Positions 1 through 29,737 of a DNA stretch of 64,000 nucleotides are shown one piece after another. This stretch comes from Escherichia phage vB_EcoM_ESCO8. The stretch lies in sequence record OM386653.1. One strand, given 5' to 3'. Under the pieces are notes generated by a model. The model ran no database searches. It had not been told where the DNA came from and worked only from the letters and a program-made list of their open reading frames with translations. The position numbers were made by a program, and so were the translations under genes. Numbering within the stretch: the stretch's first letter is position 1; each line of letters starts with the position of its first letter.

Positions 1-471
1 GCCTTAGCAGAGCAGCAATTGTTTGTAGGTGCAGCTAAACTCATTCAAAAAATTATGTTGGATGAACTATTGCACGTTAAAATGGATTATGCTATTATTG
101 ATGCACTGCTGAAAGATCCTGTTTGGAGAAAAGTATACGAAGACAATATCGACGTTCTGACAGAAATTCTTGATACGGTAGTTGGACAAGAGGAAGATTG
201 GTGTGACTATCTGTTTAGTGAAGGAAGGGTTATCGTTGGTGGTAACGCAGAGTTGTTCAAACTTTGGGTTTACTTCAATGCCGCGCCTATCTATCGCAGA
301 CTGAAAATGAAACACAAATTCCGTGCACCGAAGAAAAGTCCACTGCCTTGGATGGATGTTTGGTTAAATCCAGATCAAATTCAAGCAGCAGCACAGGAGA
401 TCCAAATTACAGCTTACAAACTGAATTCAGCAAATAAAGATGTAAGTGACGACGAGGAGTTAGATTTTTAA
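1..471 (+). CDS. nrdB: ribonucleotide reductase class Ia beta subunit, C-terminal part (5' end outside window)
   Basis: Frame is open to position 1; translated tail ...EEDWCDYLFSEGRVIVGG...SPLPWMDVWL...DDEELDF matches the conserved NrdB C-terminus (W.DYLF, P.PW..WL, acidic R1-binding tail). Confidence 0.8.
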   Translation, partial: ALAEQQLFVGAAKLIQKIMLDELLHVKMDYAIIDALLKDPVWRKVYEDNIDVLTEILDTVVGQEEDWCDYLFSEGRVIVGGNAELFKLWVYFNAAPIYRRLKMKHKFRAPKKSPLPWMDVWLNPDQIQAAAQEIQITAYKLNSANKDVSDDEELDF

Positions 472-689
472 TGAAACTACTTTGTGTTGGATTAATTTCT
501 GACTTCAAAGACGTTTTCGAAAAGGGAGCCTCTTACGAGGCTTCCGAATTGCAGAATGGTTTCTGTGATGTTTACGGTAAACGTTTAAAAAAGAATGGTG
601 ATCATTGGCTAGGAGTTCTGTCTTGCGGTCATATTATAGTTAATGGTGTAGCCAAGTTTGAAATTATCAAAGGAGAAAAAGATGATTGA
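471..689 (+). CDS. hypothetical protein (72 aa)
   Basis: ORF track; ATG overlaps nrdB stop (taATGa), compact phage-style packing. Confidence 0.4.
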   Translation: MKLLCVGLISDFKDVFEKGASYEASELQNGFCDVYGKRLKKNGDHWLGVLSCGHIIVNGVAKFEIIKGEKDD

Positions 690-864
690 TTTTGTTGATG
701 TAGATATTAATTCTGACTTAACAGAAGATGAAGGTGGCGCTTTTGTGTGTTCAGATGGGGAAAAATGTTTTACTCTGATGGTAGAAACTTATGATGGTAT
801 CACAGAAATTCTGTTAACAGAGAATGAGTTAAAACAGATGTTAGAAAAGATTGAGGAGCTTTAA
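682..864 (+). CDS. hypothetical acidic protein
   Basis: ORF track 658..864; internal ATG at 682 preceded by aaaggagaaaaag RBS is the more likely start. Confidence 0.4.
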   Translation: MIDFVDVDINSDLTEDEGGAFVCSDGEKCFTLMVETYDGITEILLTENELKQMLEKIEEL

Positions 865-866
865 TA

Positions 867-1013
867 ATGGATGATGTAAGTATTTGTCCTATCTGCGGGG
901 GTACTGGGAATTTTATTGTTAGTATGGAACAATTTATTCCTTGTTGGAATTGTAACGGCTTAGGTTTCGTTCATACAGAAGAAAAAGAAGAGGAGGAAGA
1001 TAGTGGGGGTTGA
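867..1013 (+). CDS. small zinc-ribbon protein (48 aa, CPICGG...CWNCNG)
   Basis: Not in ORF track (under 60 aa); two CxxC pairs; fills the gap between flanking ORFs. Confidence 0.4.
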   Translation: MDDVSICPICGGTGNFIVSMEQFIPCWNCNGLGFVHTEEKEEEEDSGG

Positions 1014-1329
1014 TATTGCATGGCGTATGTTACAGGGTGCACCTTTTAATAAATGGGAAGAGGCTGTAGGAGAAGATCCTAGAATTGAAGAAGAATTTGA
1101 TGGAGATTTTAATTGGTTCTTACAAGAAGGTCTTGATTTAAGCCGTATCTCTCCTTTCTATGATGCTGATGAATCTTATTGCATATATGGCATTTATTTA
1201 GAAGGTGGCGAAGGAAGTATAGCTGTAGATCTTGAGCAACTAAATAAGAATGCAAAAGAAGCCTACGCACAACTTCTTGAAAAATATAACATTGAAACGG
1301 AAACTATTATTTCTCAACACGTTTGGTAA
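1003..1329 (+). CDS. hypothetical acidic protein
   Basis: ORF track; GTG at 1003 or ATG at 1027 as start. Confidence 0.45.
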   Translation: MGVDIAWRMLQGAPFNKWEEAVGEDPRIEEEFDGDFNWFLQEGLDLSRISPFYDADESYCIYGIYLEGGEGSIAVDLEQLNKNAKEAYAQLLEKYNIETETIISQHVW

Positions 1330-1342
1330 GGAGGATAGTAGA

Positions 1343-1540
1343 ATGATGCTAGATCAACTGATCAATACTCCTCGCGTAACAGTAAGTCCAAAAACATTTG
1401 CATCACTTTTAGAAGATGCTAGAGAGGTTTATAACTTTACTGAAGAAGAGATTCCTGTTCCTGTTGAAAAAGGTTCCAGATGGTTGTTTTATGAAGGTAT
1501 TATTTTTACTGAAGGGAATAATTGGAAGGAGACTAAATGA
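1343..1540 (+). CDS. hypothetical protein (65 aa)
   Basis: ATG at 1343 preceded by taaggaggatagtaga RBS; stop overlaps rmlB start. Confidence 0.4.
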   Translation: MMLDQLINTPRVTVSPKTFASLLEDAREVYNFTEEEIPVPVEKGSRWLFYEGIIFTEGNNWKETK

Positions 1541-2526
1541 AATACTTAGTAACAGGTGGTTTAGGCTTTATTGGAAGTGCAGTAGTTCGTTTCCTGGCTA
1601 AAAATACTAAGAATGATATTTACGTTATAGATAAATGGGGTTACGCTTCAGACCCTAGAAATTTATCAGAAACACCTAATGTAAAGTTTTGTCGTGTTGA
1701 CTTGACAAATGCGCAGTTAACTGCTAAGATTGTGGCAGATGTTAATCCAGATTATATAATGCATCTTGCAGCAGAGAGTCACGTAGATAATTCAATAGCA
1801 TCACCGAGTGTTTTTATAAATTCAAATATTGTTGGAACATTTAATCTTCTAGAGGCTGTTCGTTTAATGGGAGATAAATCAAATCTTAAAATGTTCCATC
1901 ATATTTCAACAGATGAAGTGTATGGTGATATGGAAGAAGGGGATTATCCGTTTACAGAACAGAATCCTTATAAACCAAGTAGTCCATATGCTGCATCTAA
2001 AGCTGCAAGCGATCATTTGGTAAGAGCATGGCATCGTACTTATGGTATTCCGACAGTTATAACAAATTGTTCAAATAATTTTGGAGCATATCATCATCCA
2101 GAAAAACTAATACCTAAAACGATAACAAATATCTTGATGCATAAACCAATCCCTGTTTATGGCAATGGTCTTCAAGTAAGAGATTGGTTATACGTTGACG
2201 ATCACGCAGAAGCATTACACCTAGTAGTAACTAAAGGCAAATCTGGAGAAACATATAATATTGGGAGCAGAAACCCTAGAACTAATATTGATGTAATCTA
2301 TATGATTTGTGATTATATGGATGCGGTGTATCCATCTGAAACAGATGCTTGTAGCCTCATTGAAATGGTTACAGATAGACCTGGACATGATTTAAGATAC
2401 GAAGTGAATCCTTATAAGATTGAAAAGGAATTAGGGTGGAAAGCTAAAGGCATATTTGAAGAAAAACTTTATTCAACCATTGATTGGTATGTAGATAACA
2501 AAGAGTGGTGGGAAAATAAAGTTTAA
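1537..2526 (+). CDS. rmlB: dTDP-glucose 4,6-dehydratase
   Basis: 329 aa; N-terminal Rossmann motif [13 protein letters not shown], catalytic YxxxK ([13 protein letters not shown]), typical RmlB length. Confidence 0.9.
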
Positions 2527-2534
2527 GGAGGAGT

Positions 2535-3404
2535 ATGAAAGGTATTATCTTAGCAGGTGGTAGTGGAACAAGACTTTACCCAGTTACTAAAGGGGTTAGT
2601 AAACAACTATTACCAATTTATGATAAGCCTATGATTTATTATCCACTCTCTGTCCTAATGCTTTCTGGAATTAGGGAAATACTAATAATTACAACACCAG
2701 AAGATCAAATTAATTTTGTAAATCTTCTAGGTGATGGTTCTTCTTTTGGTATTTCCCTACAGTATGCAATACAGGATAGCCCAAGAGGTTTAGCAGAAGC
2801 GTTTATTATTGGTGAGAACTTTATTGGTGAAGATTCTGTAGCACTTGTGCTAGGTGATAATTTATTCTTTGGTCAGAGTTTTGGTAGCATTTTAGATTCT
2901 GCTAAAGAACATATTGAAAAGAATGGTGGAGCTAATATTTTTGGGTATCACGTAAATGATCCTGAAAGATTTGGTGTTGTTGAGTTTGATTCTGAAGGTA
3001 CAGTGGTGAGTATTGAAGAAAAACCAAAAGCACCAAAAAGCAACTATGCAATCACAGGCTTGTACTTTTACGATAATTCTGTTGTACAGAAAGCTAAAAG
3101 CGTTAAACCTTCTGCTAGAGGGGAGTTAGAGATTACAGATATAAATGAGATGTACTGGAAAGAAAAGGCTTTACGTGTCTGTAAACTAGGAAGAGGTTTC
3201 ACTTGGCTGGATACAGGAACACATGAAAGTCTTATGGAAGCATCTCAATTTGTTCATGCAATAGAAAAGCAACAAGGTATGAAGGTTGCATGCCTGGAAG
3301 AGATTGCTTTTAAAAATGAATGGATTACTTTAGACTCTGTAAAAAGTTCTGGAGAGGTTTTAAGTAAAACAGACTACGGTAAGTATTTACTTAAATTAAA
3401 ATAA
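2535..3404 (+). CDS. rmlA: glucose-1-phosphate thymidylyltransferase
   Basis: 289 aa; [18 protein letters not shown] nucleotidyltransferase signature; follows rmlB. Confidence 0.9.
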
Positions 3405-3416
3405 AGGGGGAATTAA

Positions 3417-3971
3417 ATGATTCAAGCAACAAAAATCGAAGATTTGTTGATCATTCAACCTGACGTTTACGGAGATGAACGTGGTTTTTTCTTAGAAAGT
3501 TTTAATCAGGCTTTATATGATCAATACATAGGTAAACAAAACTTTGTCCAAGATAACCATTCACGTTCTATTCGAGGAGTTCTACGTGGGCTTCATTTTC
3601 AAAAGAAAAACCCACAAGGGAAGTTAGTACGTTGTGTTCGTGGTGAAGTTTATGATGTTGCTGTAGATATTAGGGTTGGTAGTCCAACATTTGGAGAATG
3701 GGTAGGTGTTCTCTTATCTGAAAAGAATAAAACACAATTTTGGATTCCTCCTGGTTTCGCTCATGGCTTTGTTGTGATTAGTGACATTGCTGATTTTGAA
3801 TATAAATGTACAGAATATTACGATCCGACTTCAGAGTGTAGTCTTGCGTGGAATGATCCAGATATCAATATTGATTGGGGTTTTGATTTAATCTTTAATG
3901 ATATTAATTTTAAACCTATCTTGTCACAAAAAGATCAGCAAGCCAAAACACTAAAGGAGATCATATTTTGA
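3417..3971 (+). CDS. rmlC: dTDP-4-dehydrorhamnose 3,5-epimerase
   Basis: 184 aa cupin-sized protein with RGLHFQ and FAHGF motifs; third gene of rml cluster. Confidence 0.85.
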   Translation: MIQATKIEDLLIIQPDVYGDERGFFLESFNQALYDQYIGKQNFVQDNHSRSIRGVLRGLHFQKKNPQGKLVRCVRGEVYDVAVDIRVGSPTFGEWVGVLLSEKNKTQFWIPPGFAHGFVVISDIADFEYKCTEYYDPTSECSLAWNDPDINIDWGFDLIFNDINFKPILSQKDQQAKTLKEIIF

Positions 3972-4798
3972 CAAAATTTTTAATCTTTGGTTCAAAAGGT
4001 CAATTAGGACAGTCTTTGGCAAAAGTTGCGCCCGAAGATGTTATTTTGATTGAAGCAAGTGATGTAGACATTACCAACTTTAAAGATGTTATGAATAGTC
4101 TTGTACAGCATGTGCCTGATGTTGTTGTGAATTGTGCGGCTTACACGGCAGTAGATAAAGCTGAAGAAGATGTTAACACCTGTATAAATGTTAATGCATA
4201 CGGTGCAACAAACATTGCCAAAGCATGTAATGATTTACTGATACAGTTTGTACATATTTCAACAGACTATGTTTTTGATGGGCATGTTGCTGGCACAGAA
4301 GATAGTAAAACAAACCCCTTGAACACCTACGGTTACAGTAAACAATTAGGTGAAACTTTAGTACAAACAGTTTGTCCTACAGCACTTATTATCAGAACAG
4401 CTTCTGTTTATAGTGAATTTGGACATAACTTTTTGAAAACTATGTTGGAACGCTACAACGGTGGTCAAAAAGAATTTAATGTAGTATGTGATCATTTGTC
4501 ATGTCCTACTTATGCACCTGATCTTGCAGAAACAATTTTTAAACTTGTAAAAGATGGTGTAAATAGTAAAGTTGTACACTATGCAGGTGCAGATTATATT
4601 TCTTGGTATGATTTTGCACGAAAGATATTTCTTGTTATAGATTTATCTGTTACAGTTAATCCTGTATCTGCTTCAACCTATAATTCCAAAGCAGTCAGAC
4701 CAGCAACATCTTATTTAAAAACAGATCCTACTTTAAATCCGCGAAGTGTTGATAGCGGTATTGTAAGAACTTTAACTATACTTTTAAACAAGGAGTGA
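3968..4798 (+). CDS. rmlD: dTDP-4-dehydrorhamnose reductase
   Basis: 276 aa; N-terminal Rossmann-like FGSKGQLGQSL; position after rmlC; TTG start overlapping rmlC stop. Confidence 0.75.
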   Translation: MTKFLIFGSKGQLGQSLAKVAPEDVILIEASDVDITNFKDVMNSLVQHVPDVVVNCAAYTAVDKAEEDVNTCINVNAYGATNIAKACNDLLIQFVHISTDYVFDGHVAGTEDSKTNPLNTYGYSKQLGETLVQTVCPTALIIRTASVYSEFGHNFLKTMLERYNGGQKEFNVVCDHLSCPTYAPDLAETIFKLVKDGVNSKVVHYAGADYISWYDFARKIFLVIDLSVTVNPVSASTYNSKAVRPATSYLKTDPTLNPRSVDSGIVRTLTILLNKE

Positions 4799-5061
4799 AA
4801 ATGAATTTTATTATCTACGGTAAACCAAATTGTCCTTTCTGCACTAACGCTAAGATTCTACTAGAACAGCGTGAACAGGATTTTAAATATCTTACCTTAG
4901 ATGAAGACTATTCTTTAGATCAGATTCAGAATCTGGTTTTAGAGAAAACAGGTGTTCTACCACGCACATTTCCTCAGATTTTTGTGGAAGATGGTGAACA
5001 GCTAACCCACGTAGGAGGTTTTTCTGAACTACGTGAATTCATGGCTCAGATTGCGGAGTAA
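4795..5061 (+). CDS. glutaredoxin (NrdC/NrdH-like redoxin)
   Basis: 88 aa; active-site CPFC near N-terminus, TFPQIFV and GGF motifs typical of glutaredoxins. Confidence 0.8.
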   Translation: MKMNFIIYGKPNCPFCTNAKILLEQREQDFKYLTLDEDYSLDQIQNLVLEKTGVLPRTFPQIFVEDGEQLTHVGGFSELREFMAQIAE

Positions 5062-5065
5062 CAAT

Positions 5066-5209
5066 ATGAAAGGTAAACAGAAACGTAAGATCTTTTCTCG
5101 TGCTTTGGCAACAGAGCTTAAGTCCCAAACTAAAAAGACGAAGCCTAAACGTGAAATGTCTCCTGAACACCTACTGTTTCAAGAGCTAGATCATGGGGAG
5201 GGCGACTGA
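5066..5209 (+). CDS. small basic protein (47 aa)
   Basis: Not in ORF track; ATG 5 nt after grx stop; Lys/Arg-rich. Confidence 0.3.
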   Translation: MKGKQKRKIFSRALATELKSQTKKTKPKREMSPEHLLFQELDHGEGD

Positions 5210-5221
5210 TATAAGGAAAAC

Positions 5222-5722
5222 ATGGCTAAAGTAGTTGATGTGTTTGATATGTTACGTTTTGATGAAGGACTAAAGCTAACTGTATATCCTGATACCGAAG
5301 GGTATTGGACAGTTGGTATTGGACACCTTCTGACAAAACTCAAAGATAAAGCAGAAGCTATACGCATTCTTGATAACTTAGTAGGTAGAAAAACCAATGG
5401 AGTTATTACTGAAGCGGAAGCTAGAAAAATCTTTGAGAGTGACGTAAAGAAAGCGATACAACAAATCCATTCAAGTACCATACTATCTCCTATTTACGAT
5501 AAAGTAAGTCCTAATCGTAAAATGGCTATTATTAATATGGTATTTCAAATGGGGTTGAAAGGTGCAGAATCTTTCAAAAATAGCTTGACTTTAGTGAGTA
5601 ATTCATATTATACTCAAGCCTCTATAAATTTACGTAAAAGTAAATGGTATCGCCAAACGCCTAATCGCGCAGAGCGTGTAATTCAGGTACTTAAAACTGG
5701 AACATTAGACGCTTATAACTAA
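5222..5722 (+). CDS. e: T4-type lysozyme (endolysin)
   Basis: 166 aa; MLRFDEGLKLTVYPDTEGYWTVGIGHLLTK closely matches the T4 lysozyme N-terminus including catalytic Glu/Asp/Thr positions. Confidence 0.9.
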   Translation: MAKVVDVFDMLRFDEGLKLTVYPDTEGYWTVGIGHLLTKLKDKAEAIRILDNLVGRKTNGVITEAEARKIFESDVKKAIQQIHSSTILSPIYDKVSPNRKMAIINMVFQMGLKGAESFKNSLTLVSNSYYTQASINLRKSKWYRQTPNRAERVIQVLKTGTLDAYN

Positions 5723-5725
5723 ACA

Positions 5726-5746
5726 AAGGGGCGAAAGCCCCTTTTA
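5726..5746 (+). terminator. rho-independent terminator (ggggcgaaagcccc + T-run)
   Basis: GC hairpin followed by tttt directly after lysozyme stop; same hairpin recurs at 17012. Confidence 0.6.
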
Positions 5747-5760
5747 TAAGGAGTGCAAAC

Positions 5761-6513
5761 ATGGGAAACAAAACCGCAAAGGCTCGTCGTCAATCAGCAG
5801 CCAATGATGACAAACGTGCCAGTCGTTATGCGGCTAAAGCAGTAGGAAATGATGATTACCGTCTTGATGAATTTACCCCTGTTGGGAATCAAGAAGCTAT
5901 TGTAAGAAGCATGGTTTGGAATGATTTAACCATTGTTAATGCCCCAGCAGGAACAGGAAAAACGACAACAGCACTATGGAAAGCATTGCAAATGCTTAAA
6001 GCTGGTGACTTCAGAAAGTTGATTTTCCTTAAAAACCCGACAGAAGTAGGTGATGATCAAATTGGTTTCTTATCTGGAGATAAGACTGATAAACTAGCAG
6101 CACACTACGAATCAACTAAAAGAATTTTCCAACAGTTTATGACTGCAAATAAATTGGAAAACGATATTGCAAGTGGCAAAATTGAACTTAATATTCCAAA
6201 CTATGCACTAGGTGCTACGTGGGATAACAGCATTATTCTTATTGATGAAGTTCAACTTATGTCACCAAATACAGTAAAACTTCTCCTTGAGCGAGCAGGT
6301 CTTAATACACGTATTGTCATTATGGGTGATGTTAATCAAACATATGCAATTAAACGAAGAGCTAACGGGTTAGGTGATTTGTTAGATCGTGTTGTTCCTA
6401 TTAATGAAGAAGGAGAAAGGGAAGCTATTGTGGATTTTATTGGTTATGTTGAAATGACAACTGCTGATAACCAACGTTCCCGTTTGTCTCAGTTCATCAC
6501 GGAAGTATATTAA
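5761..6513 (+). CDS. phoH: PhoH-like ATPase
   Basis: 250 aa; Walker A NAPAGTGKTT, Walker B ILIDEVQ, VIMGDVNQ motif. Confidence 0.85.
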   Translation: MGNKTAKARRQSAANDDKRASRYAAKAVGNDDYRLDEFTPVGNQEAIVRSMVWNDLTIVNAPAGTGKTTTALWKALQMLKAGDFRKLIFLKNPTEVGDDQIGFLSGDKTDKLAAHYESTKRIFQQFMTANKLENDIASGKIELNIPNYALGATWDNSIILIDEVQLMSPNTVKLLLERAGLNTRIVIMGDVNQTYAIKRRANGLGDLLDRVVPINEEGEREAIVDFIGYVEMTTADNQRSRLSQFITEVY

Positions 6514-6549
6514 TAATTACAAGGCAAGGATGCCTGTTATGGAGGTTAA

Positions 6550-7044
6550 ATGACGCTAATTGAGATTGATCGCAATGGTATTGATGAATGCTATCAAGCT
6601 GGCTTAGTTAAGCCGAATGAGTTTAGACAGATTTATATTGACAAGATTGAAAAAGAAATATCTCTTCGTTTAGAGAACATGACAACTTTGCAAAAAGTTC
6701 AGATGTTTTTTAGTTGGTTAAAAGGCGAGGATTGGCTAACTAAATATTACCAGGAATTATCTGATAGTCAAGAAGGCTTGTTTGAGTGTATAATAAATAT
6801 AGCTGGGTCTAATTCAGAATTACTCCTGATTGATGAAGAAGATTCTAAACTTCTTTTTCTTAGCAGTATCTTTCACAAGAAATCTATGTTAGTAAGAAAT
6901 TGCAGTGATTTACTAAATCATCCACTAACAAGAACTAATAAAATTCTTGTGGATAAAGAAACACTAAGAGCTATTGATTACCTCCGTAAATATGTAAGCG
7001 GTGGTAAAGCAGTCCTTAAAACACTACAGGAGGAAGTACAATGA
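6550..7044 (+). CDS. hypothetical protein (164 aa)
   Basis: ORF track; stop overlaps next start. Confidence 0.5.
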   Translation: MTLIEIDRNGIDECYQAGLVKPNEFRQIYIDKIEKEISLRLENMTTLQKVQMFFSWLKGEDWLTKYYQELSDSQEGLFECIINIAGSNSELLLIDEEDSKLLFLSSIFHKKSMLVRNCSDLLNHPLTRTNKILVDKETLRAIDYLRKYVSGGKAVLKTLQEEVQ

Positions 7045-7694
7045 CAACAATTATTGCAACACGTAACAAAATTCTGTCTGACGGTAAAGTAACAGTAGGT
7101 AGTCGTGTAGACACTTTAAATTTCAAGAAAGTGCGTAAAATTGGGGATTACCTTGTTGGTGGTGCAGGACGTCTGTCTTCTATCTTGACTTTCTTTTCTT
7201 GGTTCGAACAAAACTTACAATGCCAAGCAGCACAAGAGACAATCCCAGGTTTGGTGATCCAGTCAGATCCTGATAAAGAAGATGAAGAGTTTGTGGCATT
7301 GGTTGTTCACCCAGACGGTAAAATTTATATGCACGAGGGTAATAATCCAACACGAGCATATCCTTTAACTGAAGATTATTATGCTGTTGGTAGTGGGGCA
7401 GATTTTGCTTTAGCAGCTTTAGATGCAGGGGCAACTCCAGAAGAAGCGATGGAAGTTGCAAAACTACGAGATGCTTTTTCCGGTGGTGAAACTTTTGTCG
7501 AAGAGATCGAAGAACAACTGGAGCTAACAGCGGAAGATATTCTGAACTTCAGCAAGGAGCAACTAATTAGTATGCTGTTGACTGGTGATCCTGATAGTGA
7601 TGAAGCTGAAAGTATTTTAGCAGAAATGAAAGAATCACAAGAAAAAGTATTGACAGTCTCTGAAAAACTTGATAAAGTGTCCTCTGATAATTAA
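7041..7694 (+). CDS. HslV-like Ntn peptidase (proteasome-type) with acidic C-terminal extension
   Basis: N-terminal MTTIIATRN (Thr right after Met as in HslV), GGAGRLSS and YAVGSGADFALAA resemble HslV GFAGGTAD / GSGGPYA blocks; no HslU partner in window. Confidence 0.65.
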   Translation: MTTIIATRNKILSDGKVTVGSRVDTLNFKKVRKIGDYLVGGAGRLSSILTFFSWFEQNLQCQAAQETIPGLVIQSDPDKEDEEFVALVVHPDGKIYMHEGNNPTRAYPLTEDYYAVGSGADFALAALDAGATPEEAMEVAKLRDAFSGGETFVEEIEEQLELTAEDILNFSKEQLISMLLTGDPDSDEAESILAEMKESQEKVLTVSEKLDKVSSDN

Positions 7695-7702
7695 TCTAGT
7701 AT

Positions 7703-7725
7703 AAACCCCCCTTTAAGGGGGTTAT
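7703..7725 (+). terminator. rho-independent terminator (ccccccTTTAAggggg)
   Basis: Perfect hairpin directly after HslV-like stop followed by tt. Confidence 0.5.
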
Positions 7726-7736
7726 TAGGAGGAGAT

Positions 7737-8165
7737 ATGTTACCAGTACCTGTAACCTTTGTAGAAAAAGCCTACTACTCTTTAGAACAAAACTGTAAAA
7801 GAGCTAAAAATTTTATTGAAAGTTTAGCAGAACAGCGTTACACTGTATCTAAAAAGGGATGGTTCAGAACTTCACAATATTTAGTCAACCCTTTCGGAGA
7901 AGTTCGTGTGTTGTATGGCAACACAGAAAATATCTTAGAAAGAATGTTAGAACTAGATAGGATCTCCTCCTGTGATTATCAACTGTTGAAATTTTACGAT
8001 GTGTCAGAAAGCGTTAAAAACTTTCTTGACGACTTATGTAAACGAAAAACAGAAGAAGATACAATACCAGTATCTATGGAAGAATTAACATTCTTAAGAG
8101 ATATTATGGTTTTTGAAGAAGACCCTGAAATCACAAAAGAGGAGATTTTAAGTAGTGGCAAATAA
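7737..8165 (+). CDS. hypothetical protein (142 aa)
   Basis: ORF track; aggaggagat RBS before ATG. Confidence 0.5.
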   Translation: MLPVPVTFVEKAYYSLEQNCKRAKNFIESLAEQRYTVSKKGWFRTSQYLVNPFGEVRVLYGNTENILERMLELDRISSCDYQLLKFYDVSESVKNFLDDLCKRKTEEDTIPVSMEELTFLRDIMVFEEDPEITKEEILSSGK

Positions 8166-8664
8166 GTATGATCGTCCACCAACTGATTACTATCCTACTC
8201 CACAAAAATGTATAAATGCATTATTTAGTGTAATAGATTTTAATAACCTTAAAGAAGAAGGTTTTATTTTTGCAGAACCGTGTAAAGGCGCTGCTGCTGC
8301 AATTTATCAACATTTTCCAGAAGGATCAGAATATTGTGAGTTAGAAGAAGGGAAAGATTATTTTAACCACGAATGGCATACTAAGCCGGATATTATAATC
8401 ACAAATCCCCCATTCAAACTTGCACTTGAGTTCTTGCAAAAGAGCTTAAAAGAAGCAGACGTTTGCATATACTTGTTGCGTCTTGGGTTCCTAGAGTCTA
8501 TTAAACGAAGGGAATTCCATAAACAGAATCCACCAACAAACTTGATTGTTCTTTCTGAACGACCATCTTTTGTTGCAGGTGGTACTGATAAGACAGCATA
8601 TGCTTGGTACGTCTACGACCCAAAAAACAGGCTGGGTTTAACTCAACCTTTCTATTTTGTTTAA
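8155..8664 (+). CDS. small amino-methyltransferase-like protein (putative DNA N6-adenine or N4-cytosine MTase)
   Basis: 169 aa; YYPTP, FAEPCKGAAAA (AdoMet-binding-like) and IITNPPF (motif IV) in gamma-class order. Confidence 0.55.
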   Translation: MANKYDRPPTDYYPTPQKCINALFSVIDFNNLKEEGFIFAEPCKGAAAAIYQHFPEGSEYCELEEGKDYFNHEWHTKPDIIITNPPFKLALEFLQKSLKEADVCIYLLRLGFLESIKRREFHKQNPPTNLIVLSERPSFVAGGTDKTAYAWYVYDPKNRLGLTQPFYFV

Positions 8665-8677
8665 GAGGAGCATTTTT

Positions 8678-8908
8678 ATGACCGAGAAATTTACTGTTAC
8701 TATGGAACTCACCTTTGATGAAGAAGATTTTGATCTTCATGTATCAACTAAAGCAGATAACATTCACACAACACAGAGTGTTGCAATCGCTATGTTCTTT
8801 AAACAAGCTATTGCAAAACAAGCTGAAGTATGTGCTGGTTTAGCTGTAGAGTATGCAGAAGTTGTCAAGGTTCTTGAAAGTGCTCGTAACGGCGATTGGG
8901 ATGAATAA
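8678..8908 (+). CDS. hypothetical protein
   Basis: ORF track 8657..8908; ATG at 8678 after aagaggag RBS preferred. Confidence 0.4.
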   Translation: MTEKFTVTMELTFDEEDFDLHVSTKADNIHTTQSVAIAMFFKQAIAKQAEVCAGLAVEYAEVVKVLESARNGDWDE

Positions 8909-9111
8909 TGGCATACAATTACTATCTGGTATATTTTAACGAAACTAAGAAAAAAGACACAGGAACTAATGTTTATGCGGAATCCGAAGAACACGCAAAA
9001 GCTATTGGTTCCGTGCTTCTTTCTAGAATAGCAGGTGAAGAAATTCCTGTAGAGGCTATTTTTGCAGAAGTTGACCCTGGTATTCAAGAGGATGATATTA
9101 CCACTACTTAA
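8908..9111 (+). CDS. hypothetical protein (67 aa)
   Basis: ORF track; start overlaps previous stop. Confidence 0.4.
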   Translation: MAYNYYLVYFNETKKKDTGTNVYAESEEHAKAIGSVLLSRIAGEEIPVEAIFAEVDPGIQEDDITTT

Positions 9112-9168
9112 CTGTTGACTTTAACATTAAGGTAGTGCATACTTCCTGTAACAGAACAGGAGGGTATT

Positions 9169-9831
9169 ATGAAGTTTGTACTGTATCATCGACTTTCTAA
9201 GAAGAAACAACAAGGCAACCAGTATGGTATAGAATCACAGGAAGCAGATATTCAACGCTTCCTGGATTCACAAGAAAATTATACTATTGTAGGTAGCTTT
9301 GCAGAGTTTTATTCGGGTAAAGGCGATTGGAAGCAACGTAGAGAGCTTGTAAAAGCTGTTAATCTTTGTAAAGAAACAGGTGCTACACTTGTTGTTGCTA
9401 AGGTTGACCGTCTTGGACGTAACACAGCCTCTGTTGCAACCTTATTAGAGATGATTAATGTACGAATAGCAACTATGCCCTCCGCTGAAAATATGATAAT
9501 AAATATTTTAGCAGTTCTGGCAGAAGAAGAGGCTCGTGCAATATCTGATCGTGTTAAGAAGAGCCTTAAGGTAGCAAAAGCGAAGGGAACGCTTCTTGGT
9601 GCAGCAAACCCTAAATACAAAAGAACAGATTATACGAAAACGGAAGAAGCAAAACGCTCAAAAGAGTTTGCGCTTTCTTTAAAAGATTCTTTAGTTGCAT
9701 ACAGAGCTTGTAAAACGCCATATATGACGATTGCAAAGCATCTGAATGAATCAGGAAAGAGAACTATTCGTGGGAGTTTGTTCGATGCCAAAGCGGTACA
9801 ACGTCTTTGTGCAAAATTGAATATTAAATAA
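9169..9831 (+). CDS. small serine recombinase (resolvase/invertase family)
   Basis: 220 aa; YHRLS (catalytic Ser position), VVAKVDRLGRN, AVLAEEEARAISDRVKKSLKVAKAKG match resolvase catalytic-domain blocks; C-terminal helix-turn-helix-like tail. Confidence 0.7.
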   Translation: MKFVLYHRLSKKKQQGNQYGIESQEADIQRFLDSQENYTIVGSFAEFYSGKGDWKQRRELVKAVNLCKETGATLVVAKVDRLGRNTASVATLLEMINVRIATMPSAENMIINILAVLAEEEARAISDRVKKSLKVAKAKGTLLGAANPKYKRTDYTKTEEAKRSKEFALSLKDSLVAYRACKTPYMTIAKHLNESGKRTIRGSLFDAKAVQRLCAKLNIK

Positions 9832-9840
9832 GGAGGAAAC

Positions 9841-10044
9841 ATGGTAGTTCAATCTTTTGAGGAGACTGTTAAAAAACAATTCCTATCGAAGCGAGCGATG
9901 GTTGAATTTTTGCATTTTCTCGAAGTAGATAGGGTACTTATTGAGACTACACCAGATGGTAACTGGCAAGTCTCGTATATTGCCACCAGGCATATCGTAG
10001 ACAGTACGAAAGAAGAAAGTTCGGAAGTTACGGTTGCTAGTTAA
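9841..10044 (+). CDS. hypothetical protein (67 aa)
   Basis: ORF track; aaggaggaaac RBS. Confidence 0.4.
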   Translation: MVVQSFEETVKKQFLSKRAMVEFLHFLEVDRVLIETTPDGNWQVSYIATRHIVDSTKEESSEVTVAS

Positions 10045-10055
10045 AGGAGTTAAAT

Positions 10056-10628
10056 ATGCGTTTAGCTTTTAACGGGAAGATAAGCACAGCAAACATATTA
10101 TCAGCCATAGGATTATTAGGTAAAAAATTCACACCTTTCAGTTTACCTGTTTGTGTAGATTTTGATCATGTATTTGATATTAATAATCCTTCACGTTGTA
10201 TCGCCAGAAGTAATATTGATAACCCAAGTGAAAATCTGTTTTATATTACTAAACCATCCCAGGCAATTTTGAATCAATGGGAAGCAGGTCTGATTAAACC
10301 AGGTAAATATTTTGCATTACTACCTTGTAAATCATTGGCTATAGAGGACAGTCTAAACTATGCAAACAATCTTGTTGTTACAGCATTCATTGTCTCAGAA
10401 AAAGAAGAAACTGCGGCACTTGCAAACACTGTTAAATCTTTGTATGATGCTTTGGGTGTTACTTACACTACCTTCGTTTGTGAAGATATTCCACATTGCG
10501 TTGAATTCGTGGTGAATGGTGTAACTGTATGTCGTGTAGAAACAACTCAAGACGAAGACGTTTTTATTACTGTAGCCGATGTAATATCTGAACCTGTGTT
10601 TAGCTACGCAGTTTCATTAACACATTAA
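10056..10628 (+). CDS. hypothetical protein (190 aa)
   Basis: ORF track; aaggag RBS. Confidence 0.5.
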   Translation: MRLAFNGKISTANILSAIGLLGKKFTPFSLPVCVDFDHVFDINNPSRCIARSNIDNPSENLFYITKPSQAILNQWEAGLIKPGKYFALLPCKSLAIEDSLNYANNLVVTAFIVSEKEETAALANTVKSLYDALGVTYTTFVCEDIPHCVEFVVNGVTVCRVETTQDEDVFITVADVISEPVFSYAVSLTH

Positions 10629-10638
10629 GGAGAAGGGG

Positions 10639-10965
10639 ATGAAAATAACGACAGAACAGGCTTTAATAGACAAAGGAAGGGAAATCTTAGAAAGTCATTT
10701 GGAGGATATTCAAAGGACTCCAGGGTATCTCGGCTGGCGTATACAAGAAGCCGTCGATTTTCTACCCCGTAAAAATAAAGAGATTGAAGTAAGATCTCTA
10801 TTCCTCCTTGTTAAAGTAGATGGTGACGCTATATACAAAGATGTAGCGTCTCACATTGAACAAATAGAAGAAAAAGCCTACAAAGAATTTGCAGATCTTG
10901 TTGTAGAACATAATATAGAAGGTAAAGTTAATATCTTTATACTTATGGATTTTGAGGAGAGTTGA
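10639..10965 (+). CDS. hypothetical protein (108 aa)
   Basis: ORF track; aaggagaagggg RBS. Confidence 0.45.
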   Translation: MKITTEQALIDKGREILESHLEDIQRTPGYLGWRIQEAVDFLPRKNKEIEVRSLFLLVKVDGDAIYKDVASHIEQIEEKAYKEFADLVVEHNIEGKVNIFILMDFEES

Positions 10966-11708
10966 TGCTAGTATATCAAGAAATTAGTGTAAAAGATGAT
11001 CAAGACCTGTTTATTATTGGTGATTTACATGGTTGCTTTGATTTGTACCAGAAAGGTGTTAATACTTTAGGTATCCGAGATCAAGATGTTGTTGTATCTT
11101 TAGGAGATCTTACAGATCGCGGCAAGCAGAATTTTCGTTGTGTTGTTGAATTCACCAGAAAGCTAAATCGTTATGGTATTCGTGGAAATCATGAAGATAT
11201 GATGATTAAAGGGTTGCTAGAAGGTGATAGACGATATTACGAATGTTGGTTTCAGAACGGAGGCCATACAGTTCTAGACGAGTGTGGAGAAGAGGGTGCA
11301 ACTGCTCTTGCTTTGATGCTAGAAGATTTACCTGTTGTACTTGTTGTCAATTATCGTAATATGAAACTAGGCTTTATTCACGGTGGGTATCCTTCAGTTT
11401 TGGAACATTTACCAGTGACAGAAGTTTTGCCATTTTGTTTGAATATGAATAAAGAGCAAGTTTCTCGATTCACAGAATCTTTAATGTGGGATCGTGATAT
11501 GATAGATTGCGCACTTGAAGGGATTCTTCTTCCTAGAGTTTCAGGAGTAGATTATGTATTTCACGGGCATTCTTATGTTCCTAAACCTGTGATTAGCAGT
11601 AATAGGGTATATATGGACACAGGATCTTGCTTCAATGGTAATTTAACCTTTGCATATTTTGATGATTCAAATACGTTACAATTTTATTCTACTTTAGAGG
11701 AGGACTAA
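10962..11708 (+). CDS. Ser/Thr protein phosphatase (calcineurin-like metallophosphoesterase)
   Basis: 248 aa; GDLHG, GDLTDRG, GNHE metal-binding motifs in canonical order. Confidence 0.8.
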   Translation: MMLVYQEISVKDDQDLFIIGDLHGCFDLYQKGVNTLGIRDQDVVVSLGDLTDRGKQNFRCVVEFTRKLNRYGIRGNHEDMMIKGLLEGDRRYYECWFQNGGHTVLDECGEEGATALALMLEDLPVVLVVNYRNMKLGFIHGGYPSVLEHLPVTEVLPFCLNMNKEQVSRFTESLMWDRDMIDCALEGILLPRVSGVDYVFHGHSYVPKPVISSNRVYMDTGSCFNGNLTFAYFDDSNTLQFYSTLEED

Positions 11709-13458: not shown

Positions 13459-13869
13459 ATGTATTATAGTGATTATTTTGTAAACCCAACAAAAGAACAA
13501 CTTCAATCAGCAGTGGATAAGATGCAGATTGTAGTTAAAGAATGTGAGAAAATAAGAAAACAACTACAAGAGGAGACTGTTGTTGTTAATAAATGGTTTG
13601 GTCTTAAGAAGAAAGTTGTTAGTAAACACAATATCATCCTTGAAAAAGCAAAAACGACAGGAACTAGTTACGCCTTACAAGCCTTGTTACTAAATTACAT
13701 TGATATAGAACAACATTCTCTTCTGCACTGTTGGCTTAACAGCCCTGGTATTGAGGATCTCTTGTTCTGGTTATCGTGTGAATCTGTACTTTTAAATGAG
13801 AATGAGGCTTACCGTTTAAACTTCTGCCTCAAGGCAGAATTACCAGCTAGTGTTAAGGAGAAGAAGTAA
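13459..13869 (+). CDS. hypothetical protein (136 aa)
   Basis: ORF track; gaggag RBS. Confidence 0.5.
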   Translation: MYYSDYFVNPTKEQLQSAVDKMQIVVKECEKIRKQLQEETVVVNKWFGLKKKVVSKHNIILEKAKTTGTSYALQALLLNYIDIEQHSLLHCWLNSPGIEDLLFWLSCESVLLNENEAYRLNFCLKAELPASVKEKK

Positions 13870-13871: not shown

Positions 13872-14861
13872 ATGAAAGTTTTAAGTCTTTTTGATGGTAT
13901 GTCAGGAGGAATGCTTGCGCTAAAAAGTGCAGGTATTGAAGTAGATACATATTACGCTTCAGAATTAGACAAATTTGCCGTAGCTGAAAGCCAAGCAAAT
14001 TTTCCAGATATTATTCAGTTAGGTGATGTTACAAAATGGAGAGAATGGGATATCCCGTGGGGAGAAATTGATCTTTTGTTAGGTGGTAGTCCGTGTCAAG
14101 GCTTCTCTTCTTCTGGTAAGGGTTTGAACTTTCAAGATCCGCGATCTAAGCTATTCTTCGAATATGTTGAAATTCTTGAACATATTAAAAAGTTTAATCC
14201 TAATGTTAAGTTCATGCTTGAAAACGTTAAGATGAAAGCGGAGTGGGAAAACGTGATCACAAGTTACTTAGGTGTTGATCCCGTATTCATTAACTCCGCA
14301 GATTTCACGGCACAGAATAGACAACGTTTATACTGGTGCAACTGGGAAATAAAACCCTGGGAGATTACCAATGAAGTGTTGCAAGATATCATTGAAGATG
14401 ATAGTATTGTAGACAGAGATAAGGCTTATTGCATAGATGCAAATTATGCCAAAGGTGGTAATATAGAACAGTATTTTGAAAAGAGTCGCAGACAACTGGT
14501 TTTTTATCCGGCAGCAATATATGGGCGTAGAATTAATGAAAATGGCAAACGTAGTACATCTAAAACTGATCGTTTGGTACATTGTTTGGAAGTTCAGGAC
14601 AGTGGAAAAACTCGTTGCCTCACAACTGTGCCTAAAGACGTACTATTAGCTTATATTCCACCTGGAAGATATCTAGATGCCTTTGAAAAATTAAGTGAAG
14701 GCGTACATTATAGAAAGTTAACGGTTAAAGAGTGTTGCCGCTTGCAAGGTGTGCCAGATGACTACTTTAAAGTGAGTAGTAACACACAAGCATATAAGAT
14801 GTTAGGCAATGGTTGGACTATACCTGTCATTGCACATATTCTTAAATGTATGGAGGAATAA
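13872..14861 (+). CDS. DNA cytosine-5 methyltransferase
   Basis: 329 aa; motif I LFDGMSGG, motif IV GGSPCQGFS, motif VI ENV, motif VIII QNRQR, motif X GNGWTIPV. Confidence 0.85.
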   Translation: MKVLSLFDGMSGGMLALKSAGIEVDTYYASELDKFAVAESQANFPDIIQLGDVTKWREWDIPWGEIDLLLGGSPCQGFSSSGKGLNFQDPRSKLFFEYVEILEHIKKFNPNVKFMLENVKMKAEWENVITSYLGVDPVFINSADFTAQNRQRLYWCNWEIKPWEITNEVLQDIIEDDSIVDRDKAYCIDANYAKGGNIEQYFEKSRRQLVFYPAAIYGRRINENGKRSTSKTDRLVHCLEVQDSGKTRCLTTVPKDVLLAYIPPGRYLDAFEKLSEGVHYRKLTVKECCRLQGVPDDYFKVSSNTQAYKMLGNGWTIPVIAHILKCMEE

Positions 14862-14984: not shown

Positions 14985-15593
14985 ATGACTCAAAAAGTTG
15001 CATATCAAGTAGATCGTGAAGATGGTGAAGGTAGTGTTGTAGTTTTTGATACACATGGTCTTGCAGCAAGACGCAAAGGTGCTTGTCTACTGGACATTGG
15101 TGGTGAAGATGAATACTGCACTGTACGTAGAGTAAAAGAATTTGATCAATATGCTGAAAAAGGTTTTGTACCCGTGAAAGCACTATTAGAAGCTGGATGG
15201 TGGATACCTAGTGCACATGATTATGATATTTTGGAAGATACAGATGAATTCAACAGTGAAGATTTTGTTTTTTCTCTGGATGAAAAATGTGTTTGGAAAA
15301 ACTGGGATGAAATGGAACGCCATGCTTATTTTATAAACGAAGCATTAGATCGTAAAACTTGGTTTGAAAATACAGTTAAAGCAGCGTATCCTCAATTTAC
15401 TTTTACACAGTTTTGGGGTGGCCCACATCATATTACTCATACAGCATATTTCGAGTTCCCAGGTTCACGTTATAAAGGTACTGTTTATTGGGATTGGGAC
15501 GAGAACAAAGAACCTTCTGCTCAAGATTTCCGTTGCTATGTTTGTCAAGGTGATCAAGAAGCCCTTGACAAGTACCTTAAAAGTCTGGTATAA
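14985..15593 (+). CDS. hypothetical protein (202 aa)
   Basis: ORF track. Confidence 0.5.
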   Translation: MTQKVAYQVDREDGEGSVVVFDTHGLAARRKGACLLDIGGEDEYCTVRRVKEFDQYAEKGFVPVKALLEAGWWIPSAHDYDILEDTDEFNSEDFVFSLDEKCVWKNWDEMERHAYFINEALDRKTWFENTVKAAYPQFTFTQFWGGPHHITHTAYFEFPGSRYKGTVYWDWDENKEPSAQDFRCYVCQGDQEALDKYLKSLV

Positions 15594-15632: not shown

Positions 15633-15647
15633 TTGTGTGGAGGATAT

Positions 15648-16178
15648 ATGGGTTTTGATGATATGTTATTATATGAGGAGGCTTGTGTGAAAGAAGCTAT
15701 GGCTTTACCAGTTTTATCTATTGATATTACAACAGTAGACACTTTTTCAGATTGTGAAACGTGTGGATCGTATTCGTCTATTGTACATGAAGTTAGTGGG
15801 GATTTAGGCACTTACGAAGATGGAGATTATGCAAGTTGTTTAGGTGATAATCGAGATGGTGAAGTGGCGAATGTTGCAAACTGGATTGCTTCTAAGTTAA
15901 AAGAAAGAAATCGTCCGTTCCCTAATCTTCTTACACCAGAAGCTATGCTTAAAGCTGAACAAGAGATGTATGATTATGGTTATAAAGTAGATTATGACTA
16001 TAATGATCCTAAATATAAAAAATTGAGTGACAAGTATTGGGAACTAGCTAATGCTTATGATAAATACTACTCTACAGAAAACATTGTTAAATTGTTTTTA
16101 GATTTTGGAGTAGAAATTAATTGGGATTTCGAAGAGGAAGAGCGTTACGACGCATCTTCTTGGGATGATGATTACTAA
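15648..16178 (+). CDS. hypothetical acidic protein
   Basis: Track ORF from 15633; ATG at 15648 after ggaggatat RBS preferred. Confidence 0.5.
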   Translation: MGFDDMLLYEEACVKEAMALPVLSIDITTVDTFSDCETCGSYSSIVHEVSGDLGTYEDGDYASCLGDNRDGEVANVANWIASKLKERNRPFPNLLTPEAMLKAEQEMYDYGYKVDYDYNDPKYKKLSDKYWELANAYDKYYSTENIVKLFLDFGVEINWDFEEEERYDASSWDDDY

Positions 16179-16189: not shown

Positions 16190-17002
16190 ATGCGAAGAGT
16201 AATTTTTGTTAGTGGCGCAGGTTTAAGTGCAGACAGTGGGATTCGAACGTTCCGAACAGACACAGATAGTGGTCGTGCCTTATGGGAAGAATATGACTTA
16301 GAAGAGGTCTGCGATATTGGAGCTTTCCAAGCAGGTTATCGTGTGAGAACATCTCCAGATCTTCCAGTGGTCGGTGGTGTAGACGAGAACGGTATGGACT
16401 TGTATGCCAAAACACACGAATTTTATAACAAAAGACGTGTTGAGCTTAAAGATGTACAACCTAATGCTGCACATATTCAAATAGCAAAGTGGTTTAAGGA
16501 ATATCCTAACCAAGTAGTAAACTTGACAACAAACGTCGATGATCTACTAGAGCGAGCAGGTGTGGACAGGGATTCTGTTATTCACGTGCACGGGTATCTC
16601 CCTGAAGTAGTTTACCGTATGCATCCTGGAGATTACAAAACACTGGTAGACATTGGTTACAATAGTATAAACATAGATGATTATAACTGGGTGAAGCCTA
16701 ATGTTGTATTTTTTGGTGAGGCTGCACCTTTGTATGCAGATATGGCTCACTTGTTTGATACTTTGACCATGCAAGATTTGGTTGTTGTAGTAGGATGTTC
16801 AAACCAAGTTATCAATTTTAATTGGGAATTATTCCCTGCACTTAATATGGGTACAAAAATGATTGTTGTTAACCCAGGAATTAATTACGAAGAAACTCTT
16901 CTTTACGAAGATAGAGGAGTCTTTGTTTACAGAGAAAAGGCAGCAGATGCTTTTAGCAATCCTGCTTTCATAAAAATGATAGAAGATCATTTGACTAAGT
17001 AA
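16190..17002 (+). CDS. Sir2-family (sirtuin-like) protein lacking the zinc-ribbon cysteines
   Basis: 270 aa; FVSGAGLSADSGIRTFR, TTNVDDLLERAG, HVHGY (catalytic His), VFFGEA and VVVGCS blocks in canonical order; no CxxC...CxxC module. Confidence 0.75.
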   Translation: MRRVIFVSGAGLSADSGIRTFRTDTDSGRALWEEYDLEEVCDIGAFQAGYRVRTSPDLPVVGGVDENGMDLYAKTHEFYNKRRVELKDVQPNAAHIQIAKWFKEYPNQVVNLTTNVDDLLERAGVDRDSVIHVHGYLPEVVYRMHPGDYKTLVDIGYNSINIDDYNWVKPNVVFFGEAAPLYADMAHLFDTLTMQDLVVVVGCSNQVINFNWELFPALNMGTKMIVVNPGINYEETLLYEDRGVFVYREKAADAFSNPAFIKMIEDHLTK

Positions 17003-28827: not shown

Positions 28828-29218
28828 TACGATCTTTCACCCACTGCAATCTCCCTGGGTTCGTATGGCAAGAATGTTTCTTACCTTCATCTTCATAACA
28901 CAGAAGATCATCATTAAAGGGCAGGAAGGAGGATAGCCCAGCACACGTGAATTGCAATTTCATCTCTTCCAGCGTTTTGCTACGAACCATTTTGAAATGT
29001 TCTATATCTTCTTGCGTAGGCTTTTTCTTTGACATAGCGGATGCCAGATAATCCATAAGGCAAATACACAAACCAACATTCTCACGATGCATTGAGGAAT
29101 GATCTTCCATCCATGCTTTGTAGAATTCTAACAGCAGTGGACTGCTAAGAGGAACACACATATCAGACTCCTTTATAAGATTACGTTTCATGCCACACAT
29201 CATATAGCATCTTTTCAT
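28802..29218 (-). CDS. paralog family A member 4 (138 aa)
   Basis: LLLEFYKAWMEDHS, GLCICLMDYL, FTCAGLSSFLPFN, RLQWVKDRIADSCKG motifs. Confidence 0.55.
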   Translation of the reverse strand: MKRCYMMCGMKRNLIKESDMCVPLSSPLLLEFYKAWMEDHSSMHRENVGLCICLMDYLASAMSKKKPTQEDIEHFKMVRSKTLEEMKLQFTCAGLSSFLPFNDDLLCYEDEGKKHSCHTNPGRLQWVKDRIADSCKGV

Positions 29219-29520
29219 CTGTTACAAGAACAGCAACATAGGAACATCATTAATGAAGGATTTAGTATAGGATTTCCCTATCAATTATTCTATATATACC
29301 TATTATTTTTAACACACCCCTTTGTACATAATATAGACAAATAAATATCTATGCCACAAAAATTTTCCGGTATACCCGATTTATTTCGACACACCCCCTT
29401 TTCATAAACGTAAAGTCAATAATATCAATAACTTGCCGCAAAATACTGCTCGCTTGCGAGAGGTGCTTAACGCGATTTTCAGCGCCCCCCGATTTCTGCC
29501 GACCGTCCCCCTCAAATATC

Positions 29521-29543
29521 AATGAGAATTATTATCATTTGCA
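29521..29543. promoter_or_regulatory. Fur-box-like palindromic site 1 (aatgagaattattatcatttgc)
   Basis: 14 of 19 match to GATAATGATAATCATTATC by eye; AATGA...TCATT inverted repeat. Confidence 0.35.
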
Positions 29544-29718: not shown

Positions 29719-29737
29719 GATAATGATTCTCATTTGC
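29719..29737. promoter_or_regulatory. Fur-box-like site 2 (gataatgattctcatttgc)
   Basis: Exact GATAATGAT half-site; 15 of 19 to Fur consensus; near-identical copy at 42212-42230. Confidence 0.4.

Follow-up and report, generated by a model that had tools for sequence, protein, structure and literature searches.

A complete dTDP-L-rhamnose operon in Escherichia phage vB_EcoM_ESCO8 and its possible uses

A stretch of 64,000 nucleotides from Escherichia phage vB_EcoM_ESCO8 (OM386653.1), referred to here as the window, carries near its start an intact rmlB-rmlA-rmlC-rmlD operon (1537-4798) embedded in a phage nucleotide-metabolism block. Open reading frame (ORF) calls were compared with NCBIfam equivalog profiles at their curated cut-offs, and Pfam served as a second check. 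All four Rml enzymes of the dTDP-L-rhamnose pathway are present, each scoring above its equivalog cut-off (Table 1). Pfam agrees with the NCBIfam calls, matching the rmlB product to GDP_Man_Dehyd/Epimerase and the rmlD product to PF04321 (1e-73). An earlier note, made from the DNA letters, had described a complete pathway in the order B-A-C-D in a virulent phage, next to nrdB, glutaredoxin and lysozyme. This description holds up in each of its parts: the ORFs lie where the note placed them, members of the subfamily Stephanstirmvirinae, to which the phage belongs, are virulent, and the neighbours are borne out by profile matches (NF006576, PF00462 and PF00959).

The predicted enzymes retain the residues expected of working catalysts. 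Catalytic and cofactor motifs are intact: RmlB and RmlD have GxxGxxG, S/T-D-E and YxxxK, RmlA has GGxGTRL, and RmlC has its His/Lys pair. In the translations, RmlB displays its cofactor and catalytic motifs including YAASK; RmlD contains GSKGQLG, STDY and YGYSK; and RmlC has the conserved His in RGLHFQ and the conserved Lys in GKLVRC, as is also seen in its alignment to Salmonella RmlC (1DZR; E=6e-64, ~62% identity). The match of RmlA to its Salmonella counterpart (1IIM; E=4.8e-125, ~70% identity) runs over the full length of the protein, and the allosteric Glu256 is kept. At the position of Salmonella Tyr146, the RmlA of the window has Phe, a residue also found there in the distant relative Klebsiella phage 05F01; both Salmonella and E. 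coli RmlA have Tyr146. The same change, Y146F, has been used in an engineered hyperactive and promiscuous RmlA (PMC12773781).

The four genes lie close together. The rmlB ATG, preceded by GGAGAC, overlaps the stop codon of the upstream ORF, and rmlD begins with a TTG that overlaps the rmlC stop. Spacing along B-A-C-D is 8 bp, 12 bp and a 4-bp overlap, with a strong Shine-Dalgarno sequence at every gene, and simple scans found no plus-strand terminator and no promoter excess inside the block. The G+C content of the operon is 34.7%, compared with 37.2% for the window. Judged from sequence, it is near-certain that this operon supplies dTDP-L-rhamnose independently of the host.

Table 1. The rml operon, other features of the ESCO8 window, and the glycosyltransferases of the relative muut (coordinates refer to the window)
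Feature	Coordinates	Strand	Length	Evidence and remarks
rmlB, dTDP-glucose 4,6-dehydratase	1537..2526	+	329 aa	TIGR01181, 439.2 bits (cut-off 365.1)
rmlA, glucose-1-phosphate thymidylyltransferase	2535..3404	+	289 aa	TIGR01207, 473.2 bits (cut-off 360.7)
rmlC, dTDP-4-dehydrorhamnose 3,5-epimerase	3417..3971	+	184 aa	TIGR01221, 260.4 bits (cut-off 155.8)
rmlD, dTDP-4-dehydrorhamnose reductase	3968..4798	+	276 aa	TIGR01214, 254.1 bits (cut-off 224.1); same coordinates as in the muut annotation
nrdB, C-terminal part, class Ia ribonucleotide reductase beta	19..471	+		NF006576, 9.2e-23, profile positions 226-374 of 376; gene start upstream of the window
Glutaredoxin	4795..5061	+		PF00462, 9.4e-12; TIGR02181, 3e-14, below cut-off; directly downstream of rml, same transcription block
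T4-type lysozyme family protein	5222..5722	+		PF00959, 3.4e-12
PhoH-like ATPase	5761..6513	+		PF02562, 1.4e-35; closes the syntenic run nrdAB-rmlBACD-grx-lysozyme-PhoH
Probable amino (N6/N4) DNA methyltransferase	8155..8664	+		IITNPPF motif (NPPF); homolog muut gp182 annotated as DNA methyltransferase
C5-cytosine DNA methyltransferase	13872..14861	+		PF00145, 3.2e-43, full length
gp047 (muut)			187 aa	GT-A-like, small; prophage homologs show an IRDADT motif
gp046 (muut)			228 aa	GT-A; FIFDDD and YGFED motifs
gp045 (muut)			324 aa	GT-B
gp044 (muut)			314 aa	GT-B; 41% identical to gp045

ESCO8 is one of many closely related phages that carry the operon. Over positions 1-8000, phage inny shares 99.4% identity with the window, about 50 other phi92-like phages (including arall) share 98-99%, and muut, in which a syntenic copy of nrdB is annotated, shares 98.6%. 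This group is the genus Justusliebigvirus of the subfamily Stephanstirmvirinae, virulent myoviruses with genomes of ~146 kb. Nearly all of these records already annotate the four genes as dTDP-rhamnose enzymes, and annotations of the operon exist in more than 100 genomes. Four records labelled 'Campylobacter phage' with C. jejuni as host (MG065639, MG065645, MG065656 and MG065689) are 98.6% identical over 8 kb and contain both the rml and the glycosyltransferase genes; their hosts have probably been mislabelled, unless the phages are contaminants.

The pathway has also been described in print. Olsen 2020 reported it as complete, called its location in a DNA-metabolism region "peculiar" and suggested rhamnosylation of hydroxymethylated nucleotides. 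Maffei 2021 likewise described a complete pathway and speculated about DNA glycosylation, while finding the group "exceptionally susceptible" to restriction-modification (RM) systems 'despite a putative dTDP glycosylation machinery'. The operons of phi92, phAPEC8 and other Stephanstirmvirinae are the same feature as that of ESCO8 and do not differ from it; the published DNA reading of them is speculative, and the RM data of Maffei argue against it. The operon is thus already known: its annotation goes back more than ten years, and two papers have remarked on its peculiarity.

Homologs of RmlC were found in 169 phage records. Their identity to the ESCO8 protein is ~99% within Justusliebigvirus, 76-77% in the Klebsiella phages KP13-26 and phi1_175008, and 62-63% in Phapecoctavirus. 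These identities follow phage taxonomy. In Klebsiella phage 05F01, a divergent member of the subfamily, the gene order is thyX-nrdA-nrdB-(small ORFs)-rmlB-rmlA-rmlC-rmlD-grx-...-PhoH, and its RmlB, RmlA, RmlC and RmlD are 58, 70, 51 and 40% identical to those of the window. On this comparative evidence, rml is an old module that has been inherited vertically across almost all Stephanstirmvirinae under purifying selection. When the operon DNA was compared with 5,426 complete E. coli genomes, identity reached only 65-67%, and the E. coli order is B-D-A-C rather than the phage order B-A-C-D; recent capture from E. coli was rejected on these two grounds.

Comparison with the rmlABCD genes of Enterobacteriaceae (rfbBDAC) brings out what is shared and what is not. 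The four enzyme families are the same, RmlA and RmlC resemble their Salmonella counterparts closely, and catalytic and allosteric residues are kept. Unlike the bacterial genes, the phage copy is found among nucleotide-metabolism genes of a virulent phage instead of in an O-antigen cluster, differs in gene order and DNA sequence as described above, and has no adjacent rhamnosyltransferase, flippase or polymerase. Hosts also vary in their own supply of the sugar. DNA resembling rmlB and rmlA is present in all 5,426 complete E. coli genomes, where it matches the rffG and rffH genes of enterobacterial common antigen (ECA). The committed reductase gene rfbD, however, is found at a coverage of at least 80% in 2,364 of the 5,426 (43.6%). 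Since rfbD is present in under half of E. coli genomes and the host ranges of these phages are very broad, a phage in need of dTDP-L-rhamnose could not rely on the host to provide it. A rhamnose supply independent of the host would explain why the phage pathway is complete.

A consumer for this sugar was sought among glycosyltransferases. The earlier note had tied a rhamnose-based modification to the existence of a glycosyltransferase elsewhere in the genome, and a search outside the window did find such enzymes in the group: four in muut and a GT-B pair in inny (98.8% identity with gp045 as query). The four muut genes are adjacent (107413-110589 of that record) and are positioned just upstream of the primase/helicase and DNA polymerase genes. 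Stephanstirmvirinae records with rml also carry glycosyltransferases, according to tblastn counts by host name. A possible link between the second GT-B paralog and the presence of rml was tried and dropped: phi1_175008 has rml, with one GT-B place.

AlphaFold2 models give a GT-A fold for a gp046 homolog (pLDDT 89.5) and a GT4-like GT-B fold for gp045 (pLDDT 95.3). Neighbours in fold searches include PglA/PglH-type enzymes, WaaG, TarP, Listeria RmlT, and glycosyltransferases of PBCV-1 and mimivirus; PDB sequence searches with the glycosyltransferases, the capsid protein and a ThyX-like protein discussed below returned no useful matches. None of the glycosyltransferases contains a transmembrane-like hydropathy segment (maximum KD19 1.21), which marks them as soluble cytoplasmic enzymes.

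The genes gp047, gp046 and gp045 constitute a conserved, syntenic cassette whose range extends far outside Stephanstirmvirinae, and several of its settings bear on the acceptor. In a Pseudomonas alliivorans prophage, the cassette directly follows the major capsid gene and precedes connector and tail genes. In a prophage of Serratia sp. M24T3, it is located between the lysis genes and HNH-TerS-TerL-capsid. The two prophage cassettes share the gene order, with protein identities of 42-44%, 34-36% and 45-50%. A metagenomic phage contig places GT-B and GT-A just upstream of TerL-portal-protease-capsid. Another contig has a 166-aa ORF, GT-A and GT-B in the same order (with blastp matches for GT-A and GT-B only), followed by four unknown genes and a cytidylyltransferase-like gene, and baseplate genes ~6 kb downstream. 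Additionally, in Burkholderia dolosa (locus 3025-8440) and Trinickia symbiotica (locus 4742-11026), a GT-B homolog (42-43% identity) comes after an intimin/invasin-type adhesin gene and an unannotated gene of ~560 aa in an apparent operon, which may constitute an adhesin glycosylation system. Taken together, the prophage, contig and adhesin settings suggest that the acceptor is a cytoplasmic protein, either made along with the virion or belonging to it.

Similarity to phages with glycosylated particles adds a further clue. Protein gp046 weakly matches the N-terminal domain of the right-end glycosyltransferase in cluster F mycobacteriophages (26-30% identity, E 1e-6 to 1e-8; for Bobi gp102, 26% identity, E 2e-6), a group in which virion glycosylation has been demonstrated (PMC11256854). 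The arrangement in cluster F phages such as Che8 resembles the one described here in that the phage encodes a cluster of several soluble glycosyltransferases, which are found just before HNH and terminase genes, as in the Serratia prophage. It differs in that those phages have no sugar-nucleotide pathway and in that the present system is known from genes alone. The work on Che8 and other cluster F phages is reportedly that of Freeman et al. in 2023.

Giant viruses offer a second comparison. The GDP-rhamnose/fucose pathways of chloroviruses and the UDP-L-rhamnose pathway of mimivirus, together with viral glycosyltransferases, constitute autonomous giant-virus glycosylation. As in those viruses, an activated deoxy-sugar pathway is encoded along with several cytoplasmic glycosyltransferases; the nucleotide carrier, dTDP in this case, and the enzymes are different, and the host here is bacterial.

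These observations suggest a route in three steps. During infection, established Rml biochemistry would convert glucose-1-phosphate and dTTP to dTDP-beta-L-rhamnose. The activated sugar would then feed the soluble enzyme cluster of the phage, comprising a pair of small GT-A enzymes together with one or two GT-B enzymes of GT4-like type; the cassette as rhamnose consumer is a moderately supported proposal. Finally, the acceptor would be a cytoplasmic protein, most probably the structural proteins of the virion, such that particles would bear rhamnose-containing glycans. Virion proteins as the likeliest acceptor are the weakest step, a lead rather than a result, suggested by analogy to virion glycosylation in mycobacteriophages and giant viruses. 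The full chain from rml supply through the cassette to virion proteins is tentative, and we place its probability somewhat below even. A broader version concerns Stephanstirmvirinae as a whole, phages in wide use for E. coli phage therapy: their virions would bear rhamnose glycans made by a mobile three-gene cassette that also occurs in temperate Pseudomonas and Serratia phages and in several uncultured phages, and rml would be its self-sufficiency module. This version is less likely than not.

A number of points weigh against virion proteins as the destination of the sugar. The link between rml and the glycosyltransferases is one of co-occurrence only, between loci ~70 kb apart, and the enzymes were studied in muut and inny rather than in the genome of ESCO8 itself, outside the window. 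The two modules can be found apart: Klebsiella phage KP13-16 (OP617741.1, 137 kb, Stephanstirmvirinae) has the three-gene glycosyltransferase cassette at 42-46% identity and no RmlB, RmlA, RmlC or RmlD anywhere in its genome, its nrdB-grx-(small ORFs)-phoH junction simply being without the 3.3-kb block. The cassette can therefore work without phage rml, and the modules could be unrelated. Fold searches leave the acceptor unfixed, and Che8 gp108-110, the proteins experimentally implicated in that phage, have no significant similarity to the cassette by blastp and hhalign. In three lytic lineages, the cassette is beside replication genes (primase/helicase and PolA in Stephanstirmvirinae; replication or topoisomerase II genes in two other contigs). 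Protein gp046 also shows weak matches to TAGT, a TET-associated Pfam family (1.6e-4, below cut-off), and to phrog_842, the T-even beta-glucosyl-HMC alpha-glucosyltransferase (4.5e-5). In the literature searched, no experiments addressed rhamnose, glycosyltransferases or virion glycosylation in this group, and none demonstrated that infected cells make dTDP-rhamnose or that rhamnose becomes attached to an acceptor. A negative glycoprotein stain for the E. coli myovirus JEP7, whose taxonomy is not stated, was left unused here for that reason. The Justusliebigvirus phage Paula does not feature in the papers on the Durham collection.

The replication-gene setting and the two weak gp046 similarities speak for DNA hypermodification, in which rhamnose would be transferred onto a modified phage base much as glucose is onto T-even hydroxymethylcytosine, perhaps at certain motifs only or at low density. 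This was the proposal of Olsen 2020, and it suits an operon positioned among thyX, tk, nrdAB and grx. A GT-B and GT-A pair moreover mirrors the T6 arrangement (PMC13390438), and the phage has a C5-cytosine methyltransferase. That enzyme and a separate amino-methyltransferase had been named in the earlier note, and both calls are supported, the first by a PF00145 match and the second by the NPPF motif in its translation and the annotation of its muut homolog. Furthermore, the ThyX-like protein of these phages, the sole thymidylate synthase homolog in the Pfam scans, is unusually divergent. Annotated in muut as 'thymidylate synthase' (gp204; 28871-29842, upstream of the window), it is 323 aa long, matches part of the Thy1 profile at 36.9 bits, contains the motif THRLFSRNAASSR, has no PDB sequence match and is conserved in 05F01. 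With such divergence, novel chemistry is possible on sequence alone.

The enzymes on which known phage DNA glycosylations depend were nevertheless missing where they were looked for. These systems use a hydroxyl-bearing base whose source is either a ThyA-family enzyme or a TET dioxygenase (PMC13326640), and Pfam detected no TET/JBP protein, 2-oxoglutarate oxygenase or ThyA-family hydroxymethylase/hydroxylase in ~40 proteins of at least 130 aa from the window and muut, a set that includes the C5-methyltransferase neighbours but not every small ORF. Among those neighbours, 16190-17002 encodes a Sir2 protein; 13459-13869, 14985-15593 and 15633-16178 have no Pfam match; and no TET-type oxygenase adjoins the methyltransferase in the Pfam scan. 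The T-even glucosylation and arabinosylation systems resemble the present one in part: they too belong to lytic phages that use sugar nucleotides with GT-B and GT-A-type transferases, and gp046 bears its weak resemblance to them, but no hydroxymethyl- or hydroxy-pyrimidine synthase or TET was found in the ~40 Stephanstirmvirinae proteins, and the phages are RM-sensitive. Indeed, phi92-like phages and their relatives are exceptionally susceptible to RM systems (Maffei 2021). The cassette positions inside one prophage capsid operon and before the terminase and capsid genes of another, and the GT-B homologs beside bacterial adhesin genes, also fit poorly with a DNA acceptor, and papers on phage DNA glycosylation make no mention of rhamnose or Stephanstirmvirinae. 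We consider rhamnosylated DNA quite unlikely.

The fold-search neighbours raise a different prospect, remodelling of the host envelope. GT2-like GT-A and GT4-like GT-B folds are usual in O-antigen and teichoic-acid assembly, and PglA/PglH, WaaG, TarP and RmlT are all among the structural matches. Rhamnose might be built into a lipid-linked glycan, or dTDP-4-keto-6-deoxyglucose might be diverted from ECA, which would mask receptors in ECA or the lipopolysaccharide (LPS) core and block superinfection and the loss of progeny on debris. These phages depend on ECA and LPS core (Maffei 2021), and the Fuc4NAc of ECA shares the RmlA/RmlB product with rhamnose (PMC12773781). However, no Wzx, Wzy, initiating transferase or Gtr-type membrane protein (GtrA/GtrB/GtrC) is annotated in muut, and the glycosyltransferases have no hydrophobic segment. 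The prophage cassettes belong to late morphogenesis operons and do not occupy a lysogenic-conversion locus, and diversion alone would need just RmlC and RmlD, yet four genes are conserved. On balance, an envelope role seems improbable.

A nucleotide-pool role would require no glycosyl transfer at all: dTDP-sugars could act as a thymidine buffer, or dTDP-L-rhamnose could inhibit host RmlA/RffH and thereby spare dTTP. The thyX-nrdAB-grx synteny is invariant across the subfamily, the phage RmlA keeps its allosteric Glu256, and KP13-16 decouples the glycosyltransferases from rml, all of which would suit such a role. Pools of dTTP shift measurably with RmlA activity, and the proposal has been made that dTDP-sugars serve as a reservoir of dT (PMC12773781). 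The forward four-step pathway, however, uses up dTTP, and its RmlB step is irreversible. Moreover, a buffer needs RmlA alone and a feedback lock needs RmlC and RmlD, yet four enzymes are intact at 40-70% identity across the subfamily. To our knowledge, a pool role has no precedent, and we regard it as very improbable.

The earlier note had listed base glycosylation, virion-protein glycosylation and rewiring of host envelope polysaccharide as possible uses, unranked. Cassette contexts mildly favour protein or virion glycosylation; DNA glycosylation is disfavoured by RM sensitivity and by the lack of TET, JBP and ThyA-type enzymes in the ~40 proteins covered by Pfam; and host-envelope use is neither supported nor excluded. 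The idea of the pathway itself was already in Olsen 2020 and Maffei 2021.

Other parts of the window and of related genomes contain features separate from the operon. No tRNA and no Rfam family were found in the window. It encodes a serine resolvase/invertase (PF00239; 9169-9831), the Sir2-family protein mentioned above (16190-17002) and a NADAR-domain protein (42692-43240, minus strand), and relatives add a nicotinamide phosphoribosyltransferase and a PRPP synthetase. The Sir2 and NADAR proteins, with the NAD genes of relatives, point to NAD/ADP-ribose metabolism or counter-defence. Between ~40600 and 42500, inside a run of minus-strand gene blocks, the DNA is mostly noncoding and locally higher in G+C (43% at 40-42 kb), with tandem repeats at 40672-40714 and 42182-42243 and two copies of a 67-bp unit in tandem at 42344-42474; the corresponding part of the muut record also has annotated repeat regions. 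In muut, the DNA helicase (924 aa; locus 37101-39875) aligns to window positions 53822-55555 on the plus strand over residues 1-256 and 599-924 only, segments that are adjacent in the window. The muut protein thus has an insertion of ~340 aa with no counterpart in ESCO8, possibly an intein or homing element.

Toward the end of the window, the plus strand encodes a HAD hydrolase (61749-62402), a ComF-like PRTase_3 protein (62398-63252) and a Macro-domain protein (63248-63961). In relatives, this trio is followed by TerC, TelA, vWA-TerF-like and TerD genes (beyond the window end, at ~98.8-105.4 kb in the muut record), a Ter-like run directly upstream of the endolysin and the glycosyltransferase cassette. 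The HAD, PRTase_3, Macro and Ter genes together look like a phage-borne Ter-type cluster. Clusters of such make-up have been predicted in the literature to produce a nucleoside-like metabolite.

The operon itself adds nothing new, but each possible use of the sugar would carry a different meaning. If the sugar is on DNA, it would represent a new base modification; a role in nucleotide pools or at the envelope would amount to a novel kind of auxiliary metabolic strategy. In mycobacteriophages, glycosylation of the virion changes how antibodies recognise it, and humans have abundant natural anti-rhamnose antibodies. If the sugar is on virion proteins, therapeutic coliphages of a very common group would turn out to be glycosylated, with a bearing on the pharmacology of phage therapy. 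Such a system, if true, would be an unrecognised form of virion glycosylation in phages of Gram-negative bacteria.

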